Below, piece after piece: positions 10,679 through 64,000 of a stretch of DNA of 64,000 nt. Positions within the stretch are counted from its first letter, which is position 1; every line of letters starts with the position of its first letter. Made by a program: the position numbers and the translations under genes. A model generated the notes under the pieces. The model was given only the letters and a program-made list of their open reading frames with translations, did not search any database and was not told the DNA's origin. Source of the DNA: Rozella allomycis CSF55 (lineage: Eukaryota); contig KE560959.1 in assembly GCA_000442015.1 (NCBI GenBank), positions 124,001-188,000 of the forward strand. Reading direction: 5' to 3'.

Positions 10679-13600
10679 ATGACTGTTGTCAATTCAGAAA
10701 GTTTTCTCCCGCCTATTCAAAACAATTCTGGAAGAAAAAGGGACTTCTATTCATCGACTATATTTCAAAATCAAATCGTTGAAAACAATTCAAATATAAA
10801 TCATCAGAAAAATTCATATTTAAGTAGGCTTATTCGCTTGTCAAATATCTCCAACACAGTTCCTTTGAACCAAATAAACTTTGTCGAAAATGAGAAAAAC
10901 TTAAAAACAGAAAACGAATTAATTGAACATGAAATAACTAGTGTTAAAGAAACAGACAAACACACCAATTTTCCAAGCAAGCTTCCCGTACCCATAGGAT
11001 TAGGATCACGTAAAAGAAATCAGTGGTTGGAACCCAATAAGAAAAAAGAGGAAATCGCATCAGAAATACGTGAAACTCTTAGGCATTCATATTCACCAAT
11101 TCTTGAAGAATTAAAAGTCGGCGATAAGGTGCAAGAAAGCCATGAAAGTAAACCTACACCTATAGAAAATGTAACTCAAGAAATAGCATACGAAGAATTG
11201 CTAGAAACTGGATATTCTGGTGAGATGATCGATGCCAAGATAGAGACTACGAACTTTGATGTAGAGGACAAAAAGAAAATTGAATTCAAATTAAAATCAC
11301 TATCTGAGTGCGAAAAGCCTAGTTCAGCAGGGTCTATAATTTGCGAGTATTCCAACGAATCATATTCCACAGAAATTCTATCGGGATTCGATTCTCTTAA
11401 AATGTCTATTGATACATTTATTAAACCAAAATTTGATTTTTCTTTATCTTCAGATCAAGGAATAAATAACGAACGAAATCTTAGTGTTGAACGCGGAATT
11501 GAAGATATAAGACCAAGTTCTTCCTACTCTTTTGTGATTGATTCTAATCCGCCCAGGAATCAAAGTAGATTGAGTAATATCATGAATAGGAGAAAAACAT
11601 GGATCGCTGATTTTAAAAAGCAGGCTAAAACAAAAAATGAAAACCAAGAATCTGTCACGACGAATTGCTTAAATGTATTAAAGAATGAGGTGAAATGTGT
11701 ATCTGATGCTGAAATTCAAACATCTCAAAATGAATTATTCTCCTTTAATGATATACGCGACGGTAGCGTTACAATACCCAACAACTTTATTTATCAAACC
11801 ATTTTGAACTATTTACAAGACCAAGGTTTACATGAGAGCGCCCAGATCTTTTCTTTGGAAACTGGTGTTGTTTCAAATAAAGAGAATGAAATCGAATTAA
11901 AAAGACTGATGAGGGACAAAAATTTTGATGAAGCCATAAGGCTAGTAAAGTAATTCATAAATTAAACAGCTAAAAAGAAAGACATGCCTTTCAGTGCTTA
12001 GTTCCAAAACTGTCCAATTGAAAAAGGAATCTACGATTCAAAAATTGAATATTTCTTTTCACGATTTCATTTACATTCTCTATAAATATTATTTTATCGA
12101 TTCCTTAAAAACAGGGGCAAAAAATATTGCATGGGAAGTACTTTTAAATTTGCGTGATTTCGTGGAAAATAAAGATAAAGAGGACAGATATAAATGGTAT
12201 GAATCAGATATAAATCATTTGGAATCTGCCTTTAATTCGGATCGAGAAAATGCTCCAAACTGGTTATTGAATTGGGATTGGGATACTGAAATGCATCGAT
12301 TTTGGAACAAAGTGGAATACGTGTATCGATTTAGGCGAATGAAAAAAATCCTATTTGAATTGAAGTCTTTGTATAGTAAATCTTTTATGTTGAAAAGAAA
12401 AGGTTCAAATATTTTGGATAGGTTCAAAATGGAAAACAGCGAGAAATCTGTGCCTTTGTTTGCCCATGTGGCAGCAGAATACTTCATGGATGTGAGATCG
12501 TCAATATCGATAAAGGATCTTTTCATGCTGGGTAAGCGAGTTTTGAAATCCGATATCAAACTGTTACACACCCTTTGCCCTGATATTCCAACCAATGCTT
12601 TTAATGATGAGTTCTTTTGGATTTCATGGCCTGTATGGGATGGGAAATATTCAACTGCATTAGATCAGAAAAAGAATCATATTGACAATGTAGACTATAT
12701 AAATATAGAGGATAATATTGTTGCAAAGACAAAAGAGATTAAAGTAATATATACTGAAATATAATATCATGAAAGAAGAAAGCAACAAATTAATCCAGAA
12801 ATTGAAGTTCAACTTTAAAGAACACAGCAAATTACAATCTTCGTCGGTCATTCGTCAATTAGACGTCTACAAAATTTCTGGAGATAATTAGTAATTTTCA
12901 TTTCAACCGAAAATAGTTACATTGCTGGTGCATCCGATGACAAAAAGATTTCAATTTATGATTTGCAGTTTGATCACATCCAAACCTTAGATCCTATCCC
13001 ACAATCTAAAACAATTATATTTTTGAAATTCCACCCTGAAAATTTCAACTGGGTGATTAGCGTTGATACCGACCGAAACATCGTATGGTGGCAATTGGAT
13101 TTGAGGCAGCCTCTGCAGATATGGCGAAAAAGTCATTCTCACACAGTTAATCATTTTGACTTTGTACCAAATGAGAAGGATAGTCGGTAATTGTTTACAT
13201 AATCGCATAATTTAGAGCTGTAACGTGTTCAGCCGATCATAGCATTAAATTTTGGCATTTTTCAACATCAAAGAGTCACGCAGCTAGTATTCACTCTAAT
13301 GCCCCATTTACAACATTTTGCATTTCGGGAAAAGAGGGAGTAATCGTTTTTATGAGTTCATATAGAGTCAATTGCTCTACGCTGCACAACCTAAAGGCAT
13401 AATAAAAATATACAAAGTGAAAACTTTGAATTTGATAAAGCAATGTCAAGTCATACCATTCATTGAAACTTCATTATGCTCAATTTGTGTGTCTCCTCTA
13501 GACGAAAACCTAATTATTATCTCAGCTGATAGAAGTGAAATGATAATATTGTTTAACATTAAACGAGAAAAAGTGGTAAAGAACATGACCGCAAGGGGTT

Positions 13601-15471: not shown

Positions 15472-15975
15472 TTAAGAGAACAATGCTAATGCGACTATTA
15501 CTGCGATTCCAGTCAATTGGTACTTTAAAGTTGAAGATTCGCTTTCAGATAGCAATGAATCATTTAAGGAAGTGCTGTTATTTCCAGTGCCTTCAATGGG
15601 TTCCATATTAGGACTTTCGCTTCCTGTGTCATGGGCTGATGCTGCGTCTTGAGGTCCATCAGGTTGAAGTTTGCTGGGATCTTTCTTTGAACTCTCTGTT
15701 TCTTCTGAATGCTCATTTCCAGTTTCATTTAGGCCTTTCAAGGCATCGCTTTTCTTTTCACCCGAGCTTGAGTGTTGTCCTTCGTGTTGAGAAGGATTTT
15801 CAGTTCCGTATTGCGATGGGTTTTCATTTCCATACTGCGACGGATTCTCACTTCCATATTGTGAAGGATTTTCTTCATATTGGGATGGATTTTCACTTCC
15901 ATATTGAGATGGGTTTTCTTCATATTGGGAAGGATGTTCTTCGTATTGAGATGGATGTTCATCGGCTTGTTTAGA
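15472..15975 (-). CDS. C-terminal half of a repeat-rich surface protein (ENPSQY repeats, hydrophobic C-tail)
   Basis: Open frame from the N at 15976; eight PSQ-containing repeat units; ends LTGIAVIVALALFS* like a GPI signal or membrane anchor. Confidence 0.7.
   Translation of the reverse strand, partial: SKQADEHPSQYEEHPSQYEENPSQYGSENPSQYEENPSQYGSENPSQYGNENPSQYGTENPSQHEGQHSSSGEKKSDALKGLNETGNEHSEETESSKKDPSKLQPDGPQDAASAHDTGSESPNMEPIEGTGNNSTSLNDSLLSESESSTLKYQLTGIAVIVALALFS
15783..15963 (-). repeat. Coding tandem repeat, 21/24-nt units (E[E/GS]-[H/N]PSQY)
   Basis: Direct repeats visible in DNA and protein. Confidence 0.85.
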
Positions 15976-16353
15976 NCGTATGGGAGTCATTGGCTTTAGG
16001 CTATTATTAACTGGGAAAAACTCCGCCGAGGCCGTATGCTTACTGACACTTTTGGCCTGCATTATCCAATTTTTAATTTTTGTATTCTCCTCGACCTTCG
16101 GATACAATCTTCTATTAAACAAAGGCCTCTTTCAAACCATATGGTTCTACCATCTCCTCTCTAGCAATTCTAATATCATCAATATACAGCATTTCTCCGA
16201 CAGTCTTAATATCATCAACCAAAACTGTGACGGTCTTGTCAGCCTCTGCCAGGACTATTCTTTCTAACTTCAACTCTCTCTGACATTAGACAGGGGTTTG
16301 TTAACNCTTAGCTTTGGGGACCGTACAATGAAAGAATAGAATTGCTCAGCCAC

Positions 16354-22988: not shown

Positions 22989-23061
22989 TAGCAGCGCCAA
23001 GTTTCGATCAAGGGACCTCTGAGTTATGAGCCCAGCGCTCTTCCAACTGAGCTACGCTGCT
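22989..23061 (-). tRNA. Initiator tRNA-Met (CAT)
   Basis: AGCAGCGTAGCTCAGTTGGAAGAGCGCTGGGCTCATAACTCAGAGGTCCCTTGATCGAAACTTGGCGCTGCTA: A1-U72 pair, CAT anticodon, ATCGAAA T-loop, followed by a T5 Pol III terminator. Confidence 0.9.
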
Positions 23062-25991: not shown

Positions 25992-28900
25992 TCACAAACT
26001 TCTACNGGAAGCAAGAACGATAGCATCTTCAGAGTCATTAGAATCATCATCTGAGAGTGTGTAATTGACTTTTTTCTTGTTTCTTTTAGCTTTTGGTGAA
26101 AAGAAGAGAGAGGAAGCATTTCCAGAGTCTTTAAGAGCAGATGGTTTCTTTGGAGTGTCTGAAGGTTTTGATTTCTTTGGAGGAGAGCTATCAATTGAAT
26201 CTTCAGAGTCGGATATTCTGACTTGTTTTCTGCTAGAGAAGAATGAACTCTTTGCAGTAGCTGAAGCGCTTTTAGTACTAGTAGCAGTTGACGCACTTTT
26301 AGCAGTAGTAGCACTCTTAGCAGTAGAAGCACTCTTAGTAGTAGTCTTCTTTGCAGTACTCTTAGTGCTCTTCGTAGCTGTAGTACCAGTGTCTCCTTTT
26401 ATAGTGTCTCCTTTAATGGTGTCTTCTTTTATAGTGTCTTCTTTCATAGTATCACTCCTCTTCACATTACCCTTCTTCGCAGTACCCTTCTTCTTATCAG
26501 AAGTCTTTGGCTTTGAAATGGAAACTCTTTCAATCTTCTTTGCGAGTGAATTAACATTAGAAGAACCCAAAGCCAAATTTAATCTTTCTTCTAGACTGAG
26601 ATCTAAGCTGTAAGCGCTAGTTAGTTTATTATCAACAGGAGATGACCTAGACTCATCTTCATCATCAACGTCGTCATCGTCATCGTTAAGGTCGTCATCG
26701 TCAAGGACATCACTTTCCTCTTCTTCCTCTTTTTCATCTTCTTCATCTTCAACAATTTCTTGAACAACTTCTTCTTTAATGACTTGTTTCTTTTTTCTAG
26801 ATTTCTTTTCTTGAATGTTTAATTTAAAAGTGCTTGTAGTTTCAATTCCTTTATTGAGATTCTATCAGTAGAATAGATTTATTGTTACATTGTATTCTTG
26901 AACAAAATCATCTAAATCATCCAACCATAAATCCTTTGGTGTTTTTTCTAATAGAATTGACAATTCTTTTTCCTTGTTATTCTTTTCATTAATCAACTTT
27001 TCAACCTTTTCTTTTGTTAAATTCAACAATGGCATATTAAGCAAATAATCGAACCCTTTGATTAAAGTGATTTGAGTGAGAGTTACCTATGATTAATGTG
27101 GTTTAAAGCATTATTACCTAATGATTAATGTGGTTTAANTTTTCATCTTCTTCATCTTCAACAATTTCTTGAACAACTTCTTCTTTAATGACTTGTTTCT
27201 TTTTTCTAGATTTCTTTTCTTGAATGTTTAATTTAAAAGTGCTTGTAGTTTCAATTCCTTTATTGAGATTCTATCAGTAGAATAGATTTATTGTTACATT
27301 GTATTCTTGAACAAAATCATCTAAATCATCCAACCATAAATCCTTTGGTGTTTTTTCTAATAGAATTGACAATTCTTTTTCCTTGTTATTCTTTTCATTA
27401 ATCAACTTTTCAACCTTTTCTTTTGTTAAATTCAACAATGGCATATTAAGCAAATAATCGAACCCTTTGATTAATGTTTTGAGTGAGAGTTACCTAATGA
27501 TTAATGATTTAAAGCATTATTACCTATGATTACTAATACCTTCACTTATTACCTATGATTACTATAACCTTCACTGATTACCTTCCTTGTCATCCTTTTC
27601 ATAATCTTTGGATTGTAATTCCTTTTCAACATTAATCTTCAATTTATTCTTAATAACCAAAGTTTCATTAATCAATTCAAGAATAAATCTAGCCTTGTTT
27701 TCCAATCTAGACAGTTCTTTTAATAACTGATTAGAAAGATATTCTTTTCTCTTTTGATAAAAGATTAATCTTAGATTATAAAATTCTTTAATTATTTCTT
27801 CAACATTTAAATATTTCTTTAATCTTCCAAATGAATCAAAACAAACTAAATTCCCACAAGATAATGAAACACTCATTTTGAATTTCTTTTCTAATCCTTC
27901 CTTTTCAATTAAACTCAATTGTTCTCTTGTTAAATTGATCACAAATTTAATATTCTCATCCTTGTGGTATTCTTTAAATGAAAGAATTGTATTATTTTCA
28001 ATTAATGATTCTAAATATTCTTTATAATTTTGAGTCCAACATTTGATTGGCAATTCTGAGATTTCCAAACTAGTTTCATTAATCTTTTTAATGATTCCAT
28101 TTATTTTGTATTTATCTACATCTACTTGTTCTATAACCCCTTTAAACCCCTTGTACCATGGATGCATCTTTTCAATCTCTTTCCCATTAATCATTCTCTT
28201 TATATTCTCAACAAGATCAATTGGATTGTAATTAGGCACAAATGTACTCCATCCAGTCCCTATCCCTTCAGCTCCATTAATCAACGTCATGGGAATAATC
28301 GGTATATAATACTCGGGCTCTATATCCTGTCCATCTTCATTCAAATATTTCAACAAATTATCATCTTCTATTCTAAACAACTTTCTAGCCAATGGTGACA
28401 ACAATGTAAATATATATCTGGGGCTAGCATTATCCTTTCCTTTATGAATGTTAGATTATTGAATTACCTCCTTGAAATCTACTACCAAACTGTCCATTTG
28501 GCATCAACAAATTTATATTATTACTACCTTGATAGTAAAGAAATAAAGTGATTACCTTTAATGAGTTTCAAACAAAGTGATTACCTATTATGATATGCAT
28601 TTCAACTACTTTACCTTGATGAATTAAACTTCAACTACTTTACCTTGATGAATTAAACTCNATTAATAGTAAAGTAACAAAGTGATTACCTTGATGAATT
28701 AAACTTCAACTACTTTACCTTGATGAATTAAACTCTAATCACTTTACCTACAAAGTCTTGCGCCAAGTTGATAATCGTGCCACTAAGACTCACCTCCCCA
28801 TGATGATACGCTGTATGCTCACTCACATACCCAGACAACTGATTCACCTTCACTTCACTCTTCAAATTACGCTTGAAACACGCATAGATAATCTTTCTCT

Positions 28901-31900
28901 GTCCAGGCTTAAATCCATCAACCACACTCGGAATAGATCTAACATTATCTGCAACTGAAAATAATATCAATTCCTTGTTCACAAAATCTTCAACTTTAAT
29001 AGACTTTGTCTTGTGATCCATATACGTCCCTGGCTGGAACTTTCTCAACCACTCCTTTCTATCTTCAATCTTCTTCTTGCTAAACGCCATATCAACCATC
29101 TCTCTATCTCCTTCCTTTACTCCTGAAAATGGTATTCTATGTTCACTCATGGCCTTGAAATACTTGATAGCATCATCCTTTGTACTTGTTCCCAAACCCT
29201 ATTAAAGAGAGTGAAGGGTGAGATTACCTATTAAAGAGTTTAAAATTATTTTACCTATTATTTAATCTCATATCATGTTTTACCTAATATTTAATCTCTT
29301 AACTTACTTTACCTAGTATTTAATGTCTTAACTTACTTTACCTTGTAGTATTTGATTGTCCATCCTATAGTTAAGATTAACATGTCCACTTACCTTGCCC
29401 ATTGTTATTCTTACTCTTCCATTCTTCATACTCTGGAATTGTATAAAAACTTTCAACCTTGTTTCCTTTGGTACATTTCACTATCGGTGTAATAAATTCT
29501 TGTATAAACCCTGGTATCTTTAACAATGATGGCCAAAATTTATCAAACAAATTAATCAACAATCCCTTTATATGAGATCCATCATGATCCTAAATTGAAT
29601 TTAGTAATGCATGTTACCTATTGTTAATGCATTAGTTTAGGGTTACCTATTCTAAATGTACTATAATCATGCTTACCTATTGTTACTCTACTACAATTAT
29701 GCTTACCTATTGTTACTCNAACATTACCTATTATAGAGTTTAAACATGGCATTACCTATTATAGAGTTTAAAACTATTTTACCTAGTATTTAATGTCTTA
29801 ACATAATTTACCTTGTAGTATTTGATTGTCCATCCTATAGTTAAGATTAACATGTTCACTTACCTTGTCCATTGTTATTCTTACTCTTCCATTCTTCATA
29901 CTCTGGAATTGTATAAAAACTTTCAACCTTGTTTCCTTTGGTACATTTCACTATCGGTGTAATAAATTCTTGTATAAACCCTGGTATCTTTAACAATGAT
30001 GGCCAAAATTTATCAAACAAATTAATCAACAATCCCTTTATATGAGATCCATCATGATCCTAAATTGAAGTTAGTAATGCATGTTACCTAATTGTTAATC
30101 TACTACAATCATCGTTACCTATGGTTAATCTACTATAATCATGCTTACTTGATCAGTCATTATCATAACGTGCCCATATCGCAACTCACTCGCACTGGTA
30201 TAATTCTTGCCTTGCTGCAACCCTAAAATTCTTTTAATATTCTGAATTTCTTGATTCTCCAATATTTGCTTAGCAGATGCTTCTCTAACATTCAACAATT
30301 TCCCTCTCAATGGAAACACCCCAAAATAGTCTCTTCCAACTACAGACAACCCTTGCACTGCTAATGTCTTAGCTGAATCCCCTTCTGTCAATATCAATGT
30401 ACACTGCGATGAACTCTTCGTGCCAGCATAGTTCGCATCATCCAACTTTGGTATCCCACTAATCCTACTGGTCTTGTGCCCATCACTCTTCTTCAACATC
30501 TGATTCTGCTTCGCTTGCGCAACATTCAATATATTCTCAACAATCCCAGACTTCAACACCTTTCTCCACCTTCTTCAATCTTTACCTTTTTCATAAATTC
30601 TTCTCCAAGAATACATTTAGAACCAAACGACGATTGCTTCAATGTCATCGTCTCCTTTGTTTGCGAATCAAACGAGGGATTCTCTATCAAACAATTAATA
30701 AACAACGCCATCTGGTTCTTTATTTGAAATGGCTTCAGTGGGGCTGCCTTGTTCTTCTTCTTCGTCGCTTCAACCAACGCACCAACAATCTGATCAGCTA
30801 CATGCGCTACATGCGTTCCTCCCTTGCTAGTACAGATGGAATTCACGAACGATATCTAAACACTCCAACTCTGCATTCTTACTTGCTGGAATTGTCCCTC
30901 TGATATACAAAATCCAACCTCCCATCTGTCACTCTTTTCAAACAAAACAGTCGGCTTCACTCCATTCTCATCTTCCTTCACAAACTGATTCACATAGCTC
31001 TTAAAATCTTTAATCTTTATTCTCTCGCCATTCAAATAAACTTTCACATCCTTCACTACCCCAGCCATATCATACACTCGCTTCACAAACAACTTTTCTA
31101 CATCCTCATCAAACGTCTCCATTCCAAATCTCTTCAAATCTGGCTTAAACGTTATCTACTCATTCAAACTACCCATCTTTACCTTGGTAAAATCATCCTT
31201 GCTATAGTCTACAATCTTTGGCTGTCCAACTTCACTCATATTCTTCTTAAACACCTTTGCAGTCTCAGTTTCATTCTTACTTGTCTAAATTTCTTCTTTT
31301 TGCTAGAATCAGCAGTCTCAACAACAAACTCGGTAGAAAATATATTACACAACTTGGCGCCAAATCCATTTCTACCCCCAGTCACCTTTTTCTGCGAATC
31401 ATTATAATTAGAAGATGTCAACAAATGTCCAAATATCAACTCGGGCACATACACCTTTTCATCCGCATGAACCTCAATCGGTATCCCACGCCCATCATTC
31501 ATCACACTAATCACATTATTCTCTCTATCAATATCTACCCTTATCACCCCCATCCCAGGATCACGTTGCTACTACCACCCAAAAACAACTCTTACCTTGT
31601 TGTCAGCCGCATTCACCAGTATCTCATCAAAGATCTTATAAAATCCAGGCGTATACGTGATATTCTTATACACAAATTTTCCTTGCTCAACAATCCACAT
31701 CCCCTGGGTAATACTCTCCACTGACCCTATATACGTATCCGGACGCAGCAAAATATGCTCCAACTGTGTCTTTTTCTGATACACCTCCTCCACCGGTCGG
31801 TTGTCTCTTTTCTGCTGCAATGGCTTTTTCACACTCTTCTTCACAGGCTGTCTTATGCTTATCTTATTCTTACTGAAGCCGTAAACGATGACTCATAATC

Positions 31901-31906
31901 ACTCAT
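25992..31906 (-). CDS. TOP2: DNA topoisomerase II (assembly includes two duplicated exon blocks at N joins)
   Basis: YQKKTQLEHILLRPDTYIGS, GGRNGFGAK, TEGDSA, PLRGK, MTDQDHDGSH, YYKGLGTS, DGFKPGQRK, YHHGE, ASPRY, GIGTGWS. Confidence 0.97.
27140..27464. repeat. Direct duplicate of 26731-27055 (probable second haplotype at N join 27139)
   Basis: Apparently identical sequence at offset 409. Confidence 0.85.
27465..27581 (-). other. TOP2 intron made of 4 tandem unit introns (29+29+30+29 nt)
   Basis: Each unit GTAA...AG; removal joins DDKEG to FDYLLNMP. Confidence 0.9.
28528..28747 (-). other. TOP2 intron made of tandem unit introns (six complete 28-30 nt units plus two cut by the N at 28661)
   Basis: AG|GTAA junctions at unit spacing; removal joins QDFVG to SNNINLL. 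Confidence 0.88.
29199..29341 (-). other. TOP2 intron made of 5 tandem unit introns (29+29+29+27+29 nt)
   Basis: Removal joins IKYYK to GLGTS. Confidence 0.9.
29812..30059. repeat. Direct duplicate of 29342-29589 (probable second haplotype at N join 29719)
   Basis: Offset 470; two substitutions seen, one intronic and one synonymous. Confidence 0.85.
30060..30148 (-). other. TOP2 intron made of 3 tandem unit introns (30+31+28 nt)
   Basis: Removal joins MTDQ to DHDGSH. Confidence 0.9.
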
Positions 31907-32183: not shown

Positions 32184-32772
32184 ATGCCACAAGACCAACA
32201 GCAAATTCCAGCAGATATCAAAGACGAAACTCTCGAAGAAGACAAGGAATTAGAAGCTATGAAATTACGCGTTAAAGAAATGGAAGAAGAAGCTGCCAAA
32301 CTTCGTGAAATGCAAGCTCAAGTGGAGCAGCAAATGAACATGTCTCTTGATTCTCGTAAATTTCATACCTTTAATTGTTCTAGTCGAGTCTAAAGAAGTA
32401 GTAGACAATCGCTCCATTTACGTCGGAAACGTACAGTTTATTCTGTGTTGAAATTAGGTTGACTATTCATCTACTCCAGAAGAATTACAAGCACATTTTC
32501 AAGCTTGCGGAACTATCAAAAGAGTCACCATCAATTGCGACAAGTTTACTGGGTCTCCAAAAGGATTTGCTTACGTGGAATTCGCTGACCCTGAACATGT
32601 TGCTAATGCTATGGCTCTAAATGAGTCACTTTTCAAAGGAAGACTTCTCAAAGTTTTGCCAAAGAGAACAAATATTCCAGGATTCAATAGAGGAAAATGG
32701 AGAGGTCGTGCAAGAGGCAGAGGTGGCTACAGAGGCCGTGGAAGAAGAGCAGCACATTTTGCCCCGTATTAA
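32184..32772 (+). CDS. PAB2: Nuclear poly(A)-binding protein PABPN1/Pab2
   Basis: [23 protein letters not shown] coiled coil, RRM ([18 protein letters not shown]), RG-rich tail ending FAPY. Confidence 0.93.
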
Positions 32773-32821
32773 AAAAATTGTAAAAATATTAAAAAAATTA
32801 GAATAAAGTGATAAATAAAAT

Positions 32822-34648
32822 TTAATCAGTCTTTGCCTTGAATAACTTGTCTCTAATCTTCTCCATCAAACTTTTCTTTTTCTTTACTCTCCACTCGCGC
32901 GTGTAAATGTTAAACAAGGAACCAAAAAATAAGGCCACTAATGTACTTGTAAACGTTATCACATTGAAAGGCATGCTAAAATCTGGTAATGGAAGAATGA
33001 GAACGAGAGTATTTGTAACATACTTGGAAAACCTTTGATTCCAAAGACTAATTACAGAAAAAAATATTTTTTACGGTTGATCAGAGTTCCAGAATAATGA
33101 TTCACCTATTTCATGCTCAAATAAAGCAATTCCTGGACTAGTGTATCATATATAACCAGATTACTTCAAATCAAATCCACGGTTAGGATCAGGCGGGTAT
33201 TCAGTGTATTTTAATGAAGCTTTTGTATATTCATATGAAATTTCCGTAACAGACTCTGGAGCCAAATCTAATTTCATCTGAATGGTTGCAGGTCTCTCTC
33301 TATCCTTGGCGGGCGTGTAAAAATACTCATCAATGTATGCTTGAAGACTTTATAAAGTAAATGTTACACTTTGTTTTTATAATGGAACCTTTAGTTAACG
33401 TGCTCACTTCTACTGTATGGAAATATATTCTTGCCAACCAAGGAACAATCTCCGTCCATAAAACCGTAATGTTTGTATCTGGATTTATATTTTTAATAAA
33501 GGTCTTTATCTTTCCCCTCTCTTGGCCATAGCCTGAAAATCTTCGAATAATTTTCAGTCCTTTGTTGTACGGACTTGATTCAAAATCTGTTCTTTCAAAT
33601 GAAAGTTCGGTTTCTGATTCAACATTTATTAAAGTAACATTTCTCTTTAAAGAATTCAATGATAGTTGCTTTGATTGGACACTGTTATTGATAGTGACGT
33701 TTCCGTCAATTACAATTCTTGAGTGCTCACTTATCGGACATTTCTGAATTGATTTGACACCAAAAAATGAAATATCAAATACTTAATATCAATCAACAAT
33801 CGTAATACCTTTTGACTTTGTGTAGTGATGTGAATGGACAACTGTCAATGTCTGAATTAGATGCAATTCTTTTTTTGCACAAATTGCGTCGGAACAAAGA
33901 ATCATTACATGAATTCCTAGAGAGTGGTAATTAGAATCAAAGACTTTTCTTCCTTCCAAAATTCCTGCAAACCCATTCTCTCATGATATGAATTGTTTAT
34001 TACCTTTGATTTGCACGGCAAAAGTTTTTTCCATGGCGTGAGATTTTCAGTGCAAACAATTTCTCTTGGTAATAAAGAGTATTTTAATTTCAGGTTATCG
34101 TGATCTCTTATTTCATGCCTTTTGTTTTACCTGGATAATACTTTCCTTTGGGCAATGGATGGTTTTCTGGTTTAAATAATATCAAATCTTCTGCAGTTAG
34201 ATCCTGCTTCATAAAGTTCAGGGATGCACACGATAATCCAGAGAGTGAATTTGTCAATTTTTTCCAATCTTCATCCCAGATATTAATACAGAAAGTATTT
34301 TTACGTTTGATTTGACCACACCCACAATTCTACCCCTGATGGAGAAAGTGGGGTTATCGGCTGTCCCCAGTTATCATGATTCCAACGACCTTGAGTAAAG
34401 CTTAAATGTAGCTGTGAGAAATTATATTGATTTGCCAAATGACCAATAGATCTAGGGAAGGGTCCAAAATGAGAATCAATTTATGAGAAAATATATTTAG
34501 TACTTGAAGGCCAATCAATTATTTGTGTGAATTGAAAATGAGAGACAAGAGAATTATCTTCATTCCAACGAAAGAAGACGTCTTCAGTATAACTATATGC
34601 CAAAGTGAGCTTTAAATGATACAAGAAGAAGATTAAAAGAGACATCAT
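32822..34648 (-). CDS. GPI16: GPI transamidase subunit Gpi16/PIG-T
   Basis: [60 protein letters not shown]; ends KAKTD*. Confidence 0.92.
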
Positions 34649-40077: not shown

Positions 40078-43000
40078 TTAAAGATTTCTTGAAAATACTT
40101 GAGTTGATTCAATTTCTTTTTCCAGTTCTGAAATTTTGACATGTTGATCTGCCAACAATGATTCTGCTTTTGAAACTAGAAATGTAGCCACATTTGTTAG
40201 AGTATGATCAGGTCCATTATAAATGCTACAATTGTCGGCCATAATTTGCAAATCTTTAAGAAACGTGGATGCAGTGACGTGTTTGAAATTCTTTACTTCC
40301 TACATAAAGAACAAAAATTTAGAATACTTTTTTAATTGTCGAAAGATCTCTAGGTTGTTTTATTTTCAAGAGATAATCTTTGTAGATTTTGGTATCAACT
40401 GGATCTCTAAAAGCGAATGCTGCAGGGATAGCCATCAAAGTGTTTATAATGTCTTCAAAGATGAGAGACAATTCTGTTAAAGGTCTTTTTCTCTTTACAC
40501 CTTTAAAATTGTCTTCAACGTCAACAGCCAATTTCTTCTTTTTACTCAGTTTGGCCTTTTTAGATTTTCTATTAGATTTGTTAAATGAATATTACAGAGA
40601 ATTGCTTCTTGATATAACCGATTCATCATCATCAAAAAGCAAATCTTCAATAACGTTTCCAGTGTAATTTGGACAAACTTTGTTATTTCTGTTATGTCCA
40701 GTTTGACCACAACTGCTGCATCTAAGAATTGAAGATTTTTTCTTTCCTTCGTCTTGCTCTGTGTTATTGAATGGATTAACAAATGGACTTTTAAATTTGC
40801 ATAATCATTTTACTTTGAGTTTTCGTTTTTCGTGCCAATGCTTTTTCTTGAATTTAGTAATTGTTTTTGTCTAACGTAGGCGTTGATTACTTTGGGGTCT
40901 GTAACAACTTCACTTTCTGTTCTAACCATTCCATTTGCCATTTTATACTTTCAATAATAGTTAAAATATTTACATTTCTTTTTATTGTTAGTATTTTTGG
41001 TTTAGCTTCAAATTTAGAACTTTTTGATCCAAAACTGGCAATGGATGTGACGTCATCGTCAAAGTCAATTTCTTTTTTCTGAATTTCAAATTTTTGTCTA
41101 TTTATTTCATCTTCTTGCAAAAATTCTGGTTCATTTGTATTGCTGAGAGAATTTAGCTGGGCTTTCCAAATCTTGTTGATCTATTAAAGAATAAAAAGTA
41201 TCATACTTCCTCTTTATAAGCCATTCTTTGATCATTTAGCGATACTTTACTATCCCCTTCTCTTGAAGTTAATTGGCGTATTGATGATTTAACAAAACTG
41301 AAGCCTTCACCTTTTCCTGTAGGATCTCCGAATCCAGTCAGTTGCAGCATAGCTTTGTCTTGTGTGGCATTTATGAAATTTCTCGTAACCATCCATGGCG
41401 CCAATTTCACTTCATCATCTAGTGTTTCTTCTGCTTCTTCAGTATCAACAGCCAAATGCACATATCCAGAATCTTTTAATCGTTGCTGACCAGCAAGCAT
41501 GCTTTCATACAAACATGCCATTTCTGGATTTACTATTTTTCTCAATTCATCGTCACTTGGGATGACTGACCCTGGTTTTAAATACCAAGTGCCGCTTCCA
41601 CTTTTGCTTCTAGTTTCAGCGAAATCTTTTAGCCATTTTCTTATATTTGCTTCTGTAGTTTCTCTAAATAAACATGTTAGTTGTGGTAGTCTGAATGACT
41701 TTTCAGGGCTTTGACTCTTCTTTAACAATCTCCAGGCAGTGAATTGAACTCTGCTTTTTAAATACAGACTAACTTTGCGGGAATGAACGCTGGGAACTTC
41801 CATCAAGGGAAAAGTTTGACCAACCAAAAAGGAATGTTCAATATTCCTAATGTAGTGTCTTTGGCCTTCTTTGGAAGTACATCTAATTAATAAGAAATCA
41901 GAATATTTAAGAGGCTGTTCAAATATTGGAGCTCTAAATAGATTGTTATAAACACATTGAATAGTTTGACCAGGGTCTACATTACCAAAAGTGAAGAATG
42001 GAGAAGCATCAACATTTTCTAATATGACAGGTGAGCCAATTTCATTTTTAGGAATATTTAGATCAGCTTCTCCTTTTTTGCGATAGTAAGTGTTTATTAG
42101 AGTACCCATGCTTACATTCATAACGATTGGCGGGTATTCTTCAGAATATTCCAAGAGAACGAAATCACCGTCGTCTTTAACAGAAAGATCGTGAACGTTT
42201 TTAGGGATGTGAGAAGGAGATTCTTTCAAATGATGATTTTTGCTTTTAACAAAAGTTATTCTAGACCCTGCAACAAAGTCAAATGGAGGTCTGTGCCAAT
42301 TTCTCATCTCAGATCTTGTAAAGCATGTTTTGAACTATAAATGAAATAAAAATGAAAATACCAAGGCTGGCAATAACTTTAAAGCTGGATAAGAATGTTG
42401 AACGATGGATTGACCAAACGTGTGTCTTATTCTTCCTTTTGTCTTTGTTTCGTAGTAACGATCATTTGAAAGATTGAATTTGTCTAAACTTCCTTTGTAA
42501 GCTTGAAACATATTTTCTTGTTTCAAATCTTCTTGATTGACTCTCTCTGGCATATTCCGTGGTGGGTATTGCTGGTATGGAAGCAGCCCAGGATGTCCTT
42601 TGAAACACCAACAAATGTTTTACTTCTTGGGTCATGAAATTGTGGATTTTGTCTTCCAAATATTTCTTGAATTGTTGGAGTGTCATCAAACACATAAAAT
42701 GGATCATTTTTGTTCAAAATTAAATGAGATACAAAAAGTTTGGCAGGGGGTTGTTCATCATCCAAAATAATTCTCTCATCCCAATCACCAAACTCAAAAT
42801 CATAATTCTTTATTTTAGTACAAACTCTAATAATCAATTCATCCAACGAAGTTATCTTCTCTCTCCAAGTGTTCAAAAGAATCATCGTGATTTGTTTGAT
42901 TTGATTGCTATTCACGTAGCCAAATGAATTAGAATAAAGCCCTCTAAGGGAATTGGGATCATTCAGCTTCCCCCATTCAGTCCAATCCCAAACTATCCTT

Positions 43001-43852
43001 GACTCCCAATCATCCAGCTCTGTCGCCTTTTCTTTAATAATCTTCTCCACATATTCATACAGCCTTTTCTCTTCTTCCTGTGTCAACTCATTTCTCATCC
43101 TAAATCCAACTTCGGGCATAGGCTGTTTATCATTCATCTCTTCTATCACTGATTGGTAATGGTTGCTCATCATATTCTCCTCTGTGCTCTTTGAAAACTG
43201 CGCTCTAGATGCAATACTCTTAATGTCCATCACATTAGTCTTCTTAACTGAATTATATCTCTCAAGCAAAATCGGATTCTTTGCTAACTCTGCTTGATCT
43301 ACCACATACTCAAAATCATCACTACTCACTCCCTCAAGGGCTTCATAAACAAAAATACATTCTTTTTACCTTTAATAGATCTCATCTTTTTATAAACCCT
43401 TTGCTGCTCTTTAGATATCAACAATTCGGTAAATTTCACTGGCTTTCCTTTTTGAAATGACGGAAACATCGTTCGCATATCAACTTGTTCCTTCTTTTCC
43501 TTTTCAAGGACAATATTCTCTTCTTCCTTTACTACATCCATCTGGAAATCGTCAAACGCTAAATCAGGCTGCACGGAATCAACATAAACATCTTCTGCCA
43601 ACTCATCAATATCCTCAAAATCAACAGCCTCCACCCCAGGCTTCACTGTAAATGCATCCTCTCTACTATTCTTCTTTCCTCCAGCTTGTAAAATATCTCC
43701 AAACAAATTCGCTGGAAGGTTAGCCAAAGATTCTCTGATTTCCTTGAAAAACACATTTAAATCACACCTACCTCATCTAAAAAGTCGCCTTCTATATTCC
43801 CTCGTTCGTCTACATTGCCAAATATAAAAGATACGTCAATTCCTTGGCTCAT
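40078..43852 (-). CDS. TAF1: TFIID subunit Taf1 with zinc knuckle and one bromodomain
   Basis: IFGNVDERG (TAND), FNLSNDRYY, LLEYSEEYPP, LAPWMVTRNF, GDPTGKGEGFSF, CSSCGQTGH, FRDPVD..DYL bromodomain. Confidence 0.92.
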
Positions 43853-62275: not shown

Positions 62276-62420
62276 TGAACTTAGCCACAATCTATTTTCG
62301 AATCAAATGAAATAATATCAAATGTGAATATGCGAGTAAGAATAAAATTATAAAAATGTTTAAATATCTGTTGTTTATCTTTGTGTGTGTATAATCTCGA
62401 AAATTAATTCGGGAAATTTC

Positions 62421-64000
62421 ATGAATTCTCCGGATGAAACCCACACTGAAAAACCAGAAGAATGTCGATATATAAATACATCTGACGCTGATAACAAAAA
62501 CTTATTTCCCGATAACCGAGTTCGGACTGCGCGTTATACGTTATATTCATTTTTACCAAAACAATTGTTGTATCAGTTTTCCAAGATTGCTAATGTGTAT
62601 TTTTTGTTTATATCTGTGCTTCAAATGATACCGGGACTATCACCGACTGGAACATGGACTACGATAGTTCCACTTTCTGTATTTGTGGTACTTGGTATGT
62701 TGCGAGAAGGCTATGACGATCATAAGAGATATCAGCAGGATGATGTTGAAAATAATACGCCTGCGATTGTTATGAGGAAAAAGGATGATAAGATGGAATG
62801 GGTGACAGTTCCATGGTGGGATGTGAGAGTTGGCGAAAAGTTGATTGTGAGAAACAATGAATTTTTCCCAGCGGATATATTATTGTTGAATTCTAGTGAG
62901 ATTGAAGGGGTGTGTTATGTTGAGACTGCGAATTTAGATGGAGAAACCAATTTGAAGAGCAAAGAGTCGCTGGACGTGACTGTTAAAGCAGCGTGGACGG
63001 AAGACCATTTAAAGGAGTTGAATAGTAAAAACATGGAATTGTTAGAATAGTGAATATTAAAGTGCAATTGCCAGATAATGATTTGTATAACTTTGATGGG
63101 GCGATTGTATTGACTGAAAATGGAGAAGAGATTAAGCGACCTGTTGGGATTAATCAGTTGTTGCTTAGAGGGAGTCAGTTGAAGAAGACAAGTTTTATTT
63201 ATGGGGTTGTTGTTTATACTGGTGAGGATACAAAGATTAGAAGGAATGGAAATGCCAATATCAAGAGTAAAATGTCTGTGATGGAAACGAGAATAACCAA
63301 CAGAATAATAGCGATGGTGTTTATATTTGTATTGATGGTTGCACTAATTTCATTTCTAGTTTTTATATTCCAGAATGGAGATTTGCCATGGTATGTTTCT
63401 AGCCAAACTACTGCCGATTTAGCGATGCAGTATTTTACGTTTGTAGTTTTGTACAATACGATGATTCCAATTTCATTGTATGTTACATTAGAAATTGTTA
63501 GAATGACGCAGGCATTTTATATTGACAGTGACGTGGAAATGTACTGTGCTGAATCTGACACCCCTGCCAAAGCGAGGACTAGTTCATTGAATGAAGATTT
63601 GGGGCAAATAAGTTATTTATTCTCTGACAAGGTAGAAATAAATTGAAATAACGATAGACGGGAACATTAACTGAGAATAAAATGATAATGCGATATTTTA
63701 CAACAAAGGGGATGTTGATACAACAGGGGTTGGTTGATGGTAAAATAAAACTGAAATAAATTTGTAGAATCGATGAAGATTAAGAGTGAAAAGGTTATAT
63801 TGGATCCAAGTAGGGAACAAAAAGAGATGATGGTTGAGTTTATGCAGTGTTTGTCACTTTGTCACACTGTGTTGCCTACAATTCCAGAACATTCTGTAAT
63901 CACTAAGCCATCAGAAGATAAGAATGGAATAACAATGAACAAATTCAAAACACTTGATGAGAGTGAAAATGGGTATTTCAAGTCTATAGAGTACCAAGCA
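62421..64000 (+). CDS. P4-type ATPase phospholipid flippase (runs off window)
   Basis: DNRVRTARY, QFSKIANVYFL, ETANLDGETNLK, LLLRGS, IPISLYVTLE, FSDKTGTLTEN, LCHTV. Confidence 0.93.

Follow-up and report, generated by a model that had tools for sequence, protein, structure and literature searches.

The accessible portions of two reports describe recursive splicing at zero-nucleotide sites, or ratchet points, in Drosophila and mammals (PMC13149111; PMC8605326); as the former sets out, the known recursive sites lie in introns that are typically >10 kb, and they have been demonstrated in RNA. From fungi such as Lipomyces, the available text of another paper describes stwintrons and other complex intervening sequences, which contain more than one U2 intron unit and can be removed in consecutive reactions and sometimes in a single one (PMC7138796). 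A third route to altered intron content, in the part of the account that is available, is intron gain by tandem genomic duplication of a segment that contains AGGT (PMC3443670).

The locus described here, array A, lies on the minus strand in a gene for DNA topoisomerase II (Top2) within what we call the window, the whole 64,000-nucleotide stretch of DNA that was analysed and in which all positions are numbered. Array A (27465..27581) is a 117-nt, phase-1 interruption made up of four complete GTAA...AG units with zero exon sequence between them. It resembles a recursively spliced intron, as described in those sources, in having AG|GU juxtaposed within an intron, such that excision of one segment would regenerate a donor. 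It differs in that its 117 nt fall short of the >10 kb of the described cases, in that it is known here from DNA alone, and in that it is tiled wholly by segments of single-intron size, apparently born of duplication and varying in number between alleles. As for RS-exons, each donor in array A precedes another unit, and any retained unit gives a stop codon, as cryptic exons may too. Stwintrons, in the available description, are nested, one unit interrupting or lying inside another, whereas the units here, three to six or more of them, abut with their ends intact and with nothing nested; no internal intron interrupts a donor, a branch point or an acceptor, which rules out that the arrays are stwintrons as described there. 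The likeness to intron gain by tandem duplication is that a duplication around AG|GT alters the intron content and leaves the protein unchanged; in the classic case, as far as the available account goes, exon is copied and a new intron position arises, whereas here intron units appear to have been copied at an existing position.

Minisatellites, or VNTRs, are tandem repeats with a period of 10-60 nt and with copy-number polymorphism. The arrays share with them a 27-32-nt period, mosaic neighbours, allelic copy-number differences and polarity, but differ in that their period is phased on splice sites and that both of their ends coincide with exon boundaries.

We found no description of stacks like these in the literature searched, most subscription papers being outside its reach, and the accessible parts of two papers on very short introns (PMC13644364, PMC13685798) contain no such stacks and use the word "recursive" 0 times in each. 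A pattern scan of metagenomes returned at least 109 loci and, after a microsatellite filter, at least 73 matches in at least 67 loci. Among the matches listed there was no relative with such stacks, but micro- and minisatellites instead, and none of the non-microsatellite matches examined resembled a stack in a tiny-intron gene. Of the two loci with the longest two-sided open frames among the matches listed, L060 looks bacterial and L045 looks like a vertebrate gene. Each holds a 29-nt repeat: L045 has five 29-nt GT...AG units between two open frames (1100-1244), in a repeat that reaches into the upstream exon and takes in its end, a pattern expected of duplication across a donor site, and in L060 a perfect 29-nt tandem repeat (~1480-1620) interrupts a gene. 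That gene adjoins a probable toxin-antitoxin partner.

Array A and its host gene

Top2 occupies 25992..31906 on the minus strand, as judged by its reading frame and by homologs. The exon upstream of array A (27582..28439, minus strand) was identified by homologs and by Pfam, its best named matches being early-diverging fungi at 55-58% identity; the exon downstream (27298..27464, minus strand, with a second, N-joined copy at 26889-27055) was identified by Pfam. Positions 85-381 of the Pfam family PF00521 precede the array and positions 380-432 come after it. Array A sits in a variable loop in which homologs have ~15-35 additional residues, so that homology alone cannot fix its ends, although the reading frame can. 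None of the 15 combinations that retain one or more units leaves the frame open, and all 15 run into an early stop; among the GT/GC..AG pairs tested, a single one opens the frame, namely the pair that removes the full 117 nt. Its removal restores the Gly codon preceding FDYLL, which the array splits in phase 1.

All four units lie on the minus strand: A1 (27553..27581, 29 nt) is G-rich and carries the first donor, A2 (27524..27552) has 29 nt, A3 (27494..27523) has 30 nt, and A4 (27465..27493, 29 nt) is C-rich, carries the last acceptor and has an interior without G. The original prediction of an N-free array of 29+29+30+29 = 117 nt on this strand is thus borne out at 27581-27465, as is its description of the first two units as near copies (their interiors are 87% alike, and the two differ at three letters). 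It had also held that A3 and A4 share little beyond their ends; they are 58% alike, against an across-array background of 50 +/- 9%, and share more of their 3′ halves than had been claimed. AG|GT is present at all three internal junctions, and TAATCA lies close to the 3′ end of all four units as well as of both complete units in the second copy of the array described below.

Chains of three or more units occurred in none of 40 simulated 128-kb sequences, which gave two-unit chains at 0.825 per simulation, and a four-junction pattern matched five times in the window, every time within Top2, and never in 100 shuffles. The G+C content of the window is ~34%, which agrees with Rozella allomycis as the organism, as do the fungal matches of Top2 and the intron lengths published for that species (PMC6157073). 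An Rfam search of the window gave no match to the arrays, its sole match being one tRNA gene (22989-23061, minus strand). The anatomy of array A is real and non-random, and it is probably functional.

Further arrays and their allelic versions

Four intron positions in Top2 are stacks (arrays A to D), with a tandem period of 29-30 at each. The reading frame also places eight single introns of 26-29 nt in the gene, at seven of which homologs align across the junction, and there is probably a ninth, of 26 nt, near the gene start, as read from the sequence.

Two versions of an array meet at each of three single Ns (29719, 28661 and 27139), in two cases with a repeated stretch of exon, and these N-joined repeats look like alleles. 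Contigs of the DNA runs bridge two of the Ns, from 28662 to 28529 in X1 and X2 and from 29720 to 29219 in X1; for the third, loose contig ends at 27138 and 27490 in X1, X2 and X5 indicate that unit 3 of array A leads into the units after 27139. One copy of each repeated exon is nearly without contig cover (bins 27155-27416 and 29906-30036); the allele reading rests on the joints and loose ends and not on these gaps in cover.

Read as alleles, all on the minus strand, the versions differ in unit number at every position. Array A has the four-unit allele and another that most simply has six units (at least five), whose 3′ part, one partial and two complete units of 31 and 31 nt, lies at 27056..27138. 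Array B (28528..28747) consists of two alleles joined at N 28661, one of three units, completed by the joint from 28662 to 28529, and one of at least five. For array C there are a five-unit allele (29199..29341) and the 5′ part of a four-unit allele (29720..29811, with the joint 29219-29720 in X1), and for array D a three-unit allele (30060..30148) and a longer one of at least five units, represented by its 3′ part (29590..29718). All eight array versions are tiled by GTAA...AG units of 27-32 nt, one version being partial and four being partly rebuilt, either from contig joints or loose ends or, in the case of the longer version of B, by assuming a first unit. A further version of array B in X5 has a 28-nt in-register insertion, copied across a junction. 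The available part of one report describes Rozella allomycis as triploid (PMC6784888), so that, if this is the organism, three versions of an array would be expected.

One contig of X2 lacks 13 nt in array C (window 29304-29316). As listed, this gap abolishes one internal junction and leaves a 45-nt segment, which is beyond steps of 24-34 nt and could be cleared either in one 45-nt step or by nested cuts of at most 36 nt; if the listed place marks the gap's other end, a 16-nt unit results and a route of 24-34-nt steps exists. The deletion could reflect a null allele or an artefact, or it could indicate that cuts of greater length, or nested ones, are feasible. An X2 contig also differs from the exon after array A (window 26928-26997) at six letters, five of them in third codon positions and one altering a residue; on this sequence comparison, allelic divergence near array A may exceed what the two copies in the window suggest.

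Elsewhere in the window, further single Ns occur at 15976, 16306, 16501, 19742, 24587 and 26006, some of them within repeats, and these may be similar joins of allelic contigs. At 15780-15961 a 21-24-nt tandem repeat lies within an open frame, which encodes a small protein that is probably secreted or on the surface.

Single introns in the window

Outside Top2, 79 of 81 single introns in 22 regions of the window are 26-29 nt long and none abut, in a parse that allowed 24-34 nt; the count leaves out two from a region that was parsed on the wrong strand (32350-32950), and this short-only parse is biased towards short introns and, in 29 of 100 trials, passed over an artificial intron of 60-120 nt. 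A longest-frame parse in which 18-400 nt were allowed placed 65 of 90 introns at 25-30 nt, with 18 shorter, which we take to be artefacts of parser bias, and seven longer. Six of these seven were gone under the 24-34-nt limit, one with the wrong-strand region and three because the model now began or ended elsewhere. The one long junction left (12744-12798, plus strand) could be a gene boundary, a plain intron of 55 nt, or an intron of 28 nt whose end is not AG. In the window, long introns of the plain kind seem to be rare. For Rozella allomycis, the accessible parts of two papers give a mode of 26 and a median of 28 nt for 94% of introns in a length fit (PMC6157073) and ~30 nt for two introns (PMC6349667).

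The units of the arrays average 29.2 nt versus 27.2 nt for the single introns, a comparison in which the units are not independent and the parse favours short introns. GTAA begins 29 of 29 distinct units versus 53 of 73 single introns, and 26 of 29 units, against 34 of 65 single introns, carry a TAA 4-16 nt upstream of their end.

Junction conservation and the removal of the arrays

Across 19 pairs of related units, which were chosen by us, none of 114 positions in the junction hexamers had changed, against 77 events in 449 interior positions. Once the terminal sites, which would be kept under any model, are set aside, this invariance has P ~3e-6 if 68 positions are counted and 5e-9 if 102 are. 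Thirteen further mapped allelic changes, which partly overlap the 77 events, likewise spare GTAA and AG. The original prediction had proposed selection on the unit ends, and these counts support it: the internal junctions appear to be conserved beyond neutral expectation, the exception being the junction-breaking deletion in X2. In-register exchange between units could itself protect a shared motif, but exchange alone would not make AG|GTAA, of all motifs, the part that stays invariant in each of four separate arrays.

The anatomy of array A, the need to remove the full 117 nt, the invariant junctions and the allelic differences in unit number are established directly. The explanation that we favour, with a probability of roughly 0.6, is that each unit is a working intron, that the units would be cleared in successive rounds of splicing, and that they multiply like a minisatellite. 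Array A would then consist of four functional spliceosomal introns stacked end to end and separated by exons of zero length. The spliceosome here would normally excise segments of ~26-29 nt that run from a GT to an AG, and excision of any unit would restore a donor joint, either AG|GTAA or exon|GTAA. Successive rounds could therefore follow more than one order and still lead to the same final mRNA; changes that destroy an internal AG or GT would mostly be purged. We infer both the use of the internal sites in vivo and the order of removal. Several observations are counterpoints to this stepwise reading, namely the 13-nt deletion in X2, the longer units, the pyrimidine-rich last units and the possible 55-nt intron. 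A ~29-nt ladder in RT-PCR would be ambiguous, because whole-unit differences between alleles, and PCR slippage between units that are nearly identical, should also give steps of ~29 nt in the absence of recursive splicing.

The main rival, which we consider rather unlikely, is that the array is removed mostly in one step, from the first GT to the last AG, with the internal junctions persisting as a fail-safe for stray cuts or through homogenisation. In such a scheme the pyrimidine-rich last unit would provide a strong 3′ end, and pairing between the first and last units may shorten the distance. The stacks are polar, with G-rich head units and a C-rich last unit: in seven of the eight array versions the G minus C count is lowest in the last unit, and last units are 27% C and 2% G versus 9% C and 12% G in single introns. 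The predicted duplex between first and last units beats dinucleotide shuffles overall (Fisher 2e-4, post hoc; p 0.006 for A, 0.003 for B, 0.28 for C and 0.07 for D), as against 4 of 60 control pairs of single introns at p<=0.05, and own-array first-last pairing ranks 1 of 24 in three of four allele combinations, also post hoc. In array A the first donor and the final 17 nt remain outside the predicted stem, as one-step removal would have it, and the X2 deletion, which breaks a junction in array C, is on the same side. In arrays B and D, however, the first donor is buried within the predicted stem; the last units pair equally well with G-rich single introns that lie towards the 5′ end of Top2; and the folding energy of whole-array RNA shows no excess over shuffles (z +0.3 to -1.3). 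Nor does one-step removal readily explain why AG|GTAA should be the invariant core of four independent arrays.

The composition of the gene itself is also polar. Silent sites on the coding strand of Top2 (window 28000-31900, minus strand) are strongly G-rich and C-poor over the first two thirds, with G up to 0.60 and C at 0.04-0.12 at fourfold sites, and the skew wanes toward the 3′ end. The single introns of Top2 likewise shift from G-rich to G-poor along the gene, and arrays A to D occupy the later part of the skewed zone and the stretch where the skew fades. A weaker skew is found at 42523-43772 and 62364-63646. The polarity and the pairing could fit removal in one step or stepwise removal in a set order, or they could have a mutational cause.

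It is improbable, in our view, that the stack was selected as a regulator, several rounds of splicing serving to delay the Top2 mRNA or to send partly spliced, stop-containing RNA to decay: the early stop in all 15 partly spliced forms of array A is what such a regulator would use, but alleles vary freely in unit number at all four positions.

Origin of the units

Neighbouring units within an array share halves and are up to 83-96% identical, whereas units of different arrays, compared within this window's arrays with introners in mind, are 0.50 +/- 0.09 identical (313 pairs); the first and last units of one array can be as unlike as 0.30-0.35. This mosaic of neighbours suggests growth in the manner of a minisatellite, and for the mutational mechanism we infer in-register slippage or unequal exchange by about one unit length per step, through which stacks would arise and change unnoticed by the protein. 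The original prediction of old duplications was half right, in that units are still being gained and lost: the second copy of array A has two 96%-identical units that are absent from the four-unit copy. A derivation of the units from the flanking exon was unsupported, with 1 of 34 unit rows at nominal p 0.025 and none in array A.

Had the units been inserted serially from elsewhere, as introner-like elements or by reverse splicing at AG|GT, rather than duplicated in place, first and last units as unlike as these would be no surprise; the close likeness of neighbours within arrays relative to units of different arrays, and the insertion in X5 that copies across a junction in register, make such an origin very improbable. 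That array A is an assembly artefact is hardly credible: the region is misassembled, with repeated exons joined by Ns, and unit 4 of the window has extra contig cover in X1 (263.8 observed, 135.7 from the long contig alone) and not in X2 or X5, X1 being a run that may be the source of the window, but in X1, X2 and X5 a single contig (27490-28529 or beyond) carries units 1-3 together with the donor of the next unit, and the units differ in sequence and are not collapsed copies.

Implications

The stepwise reading can be taken further, although we do so tentatively and with some doubt. The spliceosome of this organism might measure length and hardly remove more than ~32 nt, in which case longer introns would have to be obligatory recursive stacks: hypervariable minisatellites whose polarity, with a G-rich head, a pyrimidine-rich tail and pairing between head and tail, may set the order of removal. 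If so, introns could grow only in whole-intron steps, and wherever an insertion fell at a zero-length exon, a single intron position would become two.

If the units are excised singly, the arrays would represent recursive splicing at the opposite extreme of size, and as a constitutive process in an essential gene. They offer a natural test of the limit on intron length in tiny-intron genomes, with alleles of differing unit number within one organism as built-in controls. Stacks of this kind also disrupt assemblies and gene models, an effect illustrated here by the exon repeats joined by Ns, and they show a route by which intron sequence can multiply without mobile elements.
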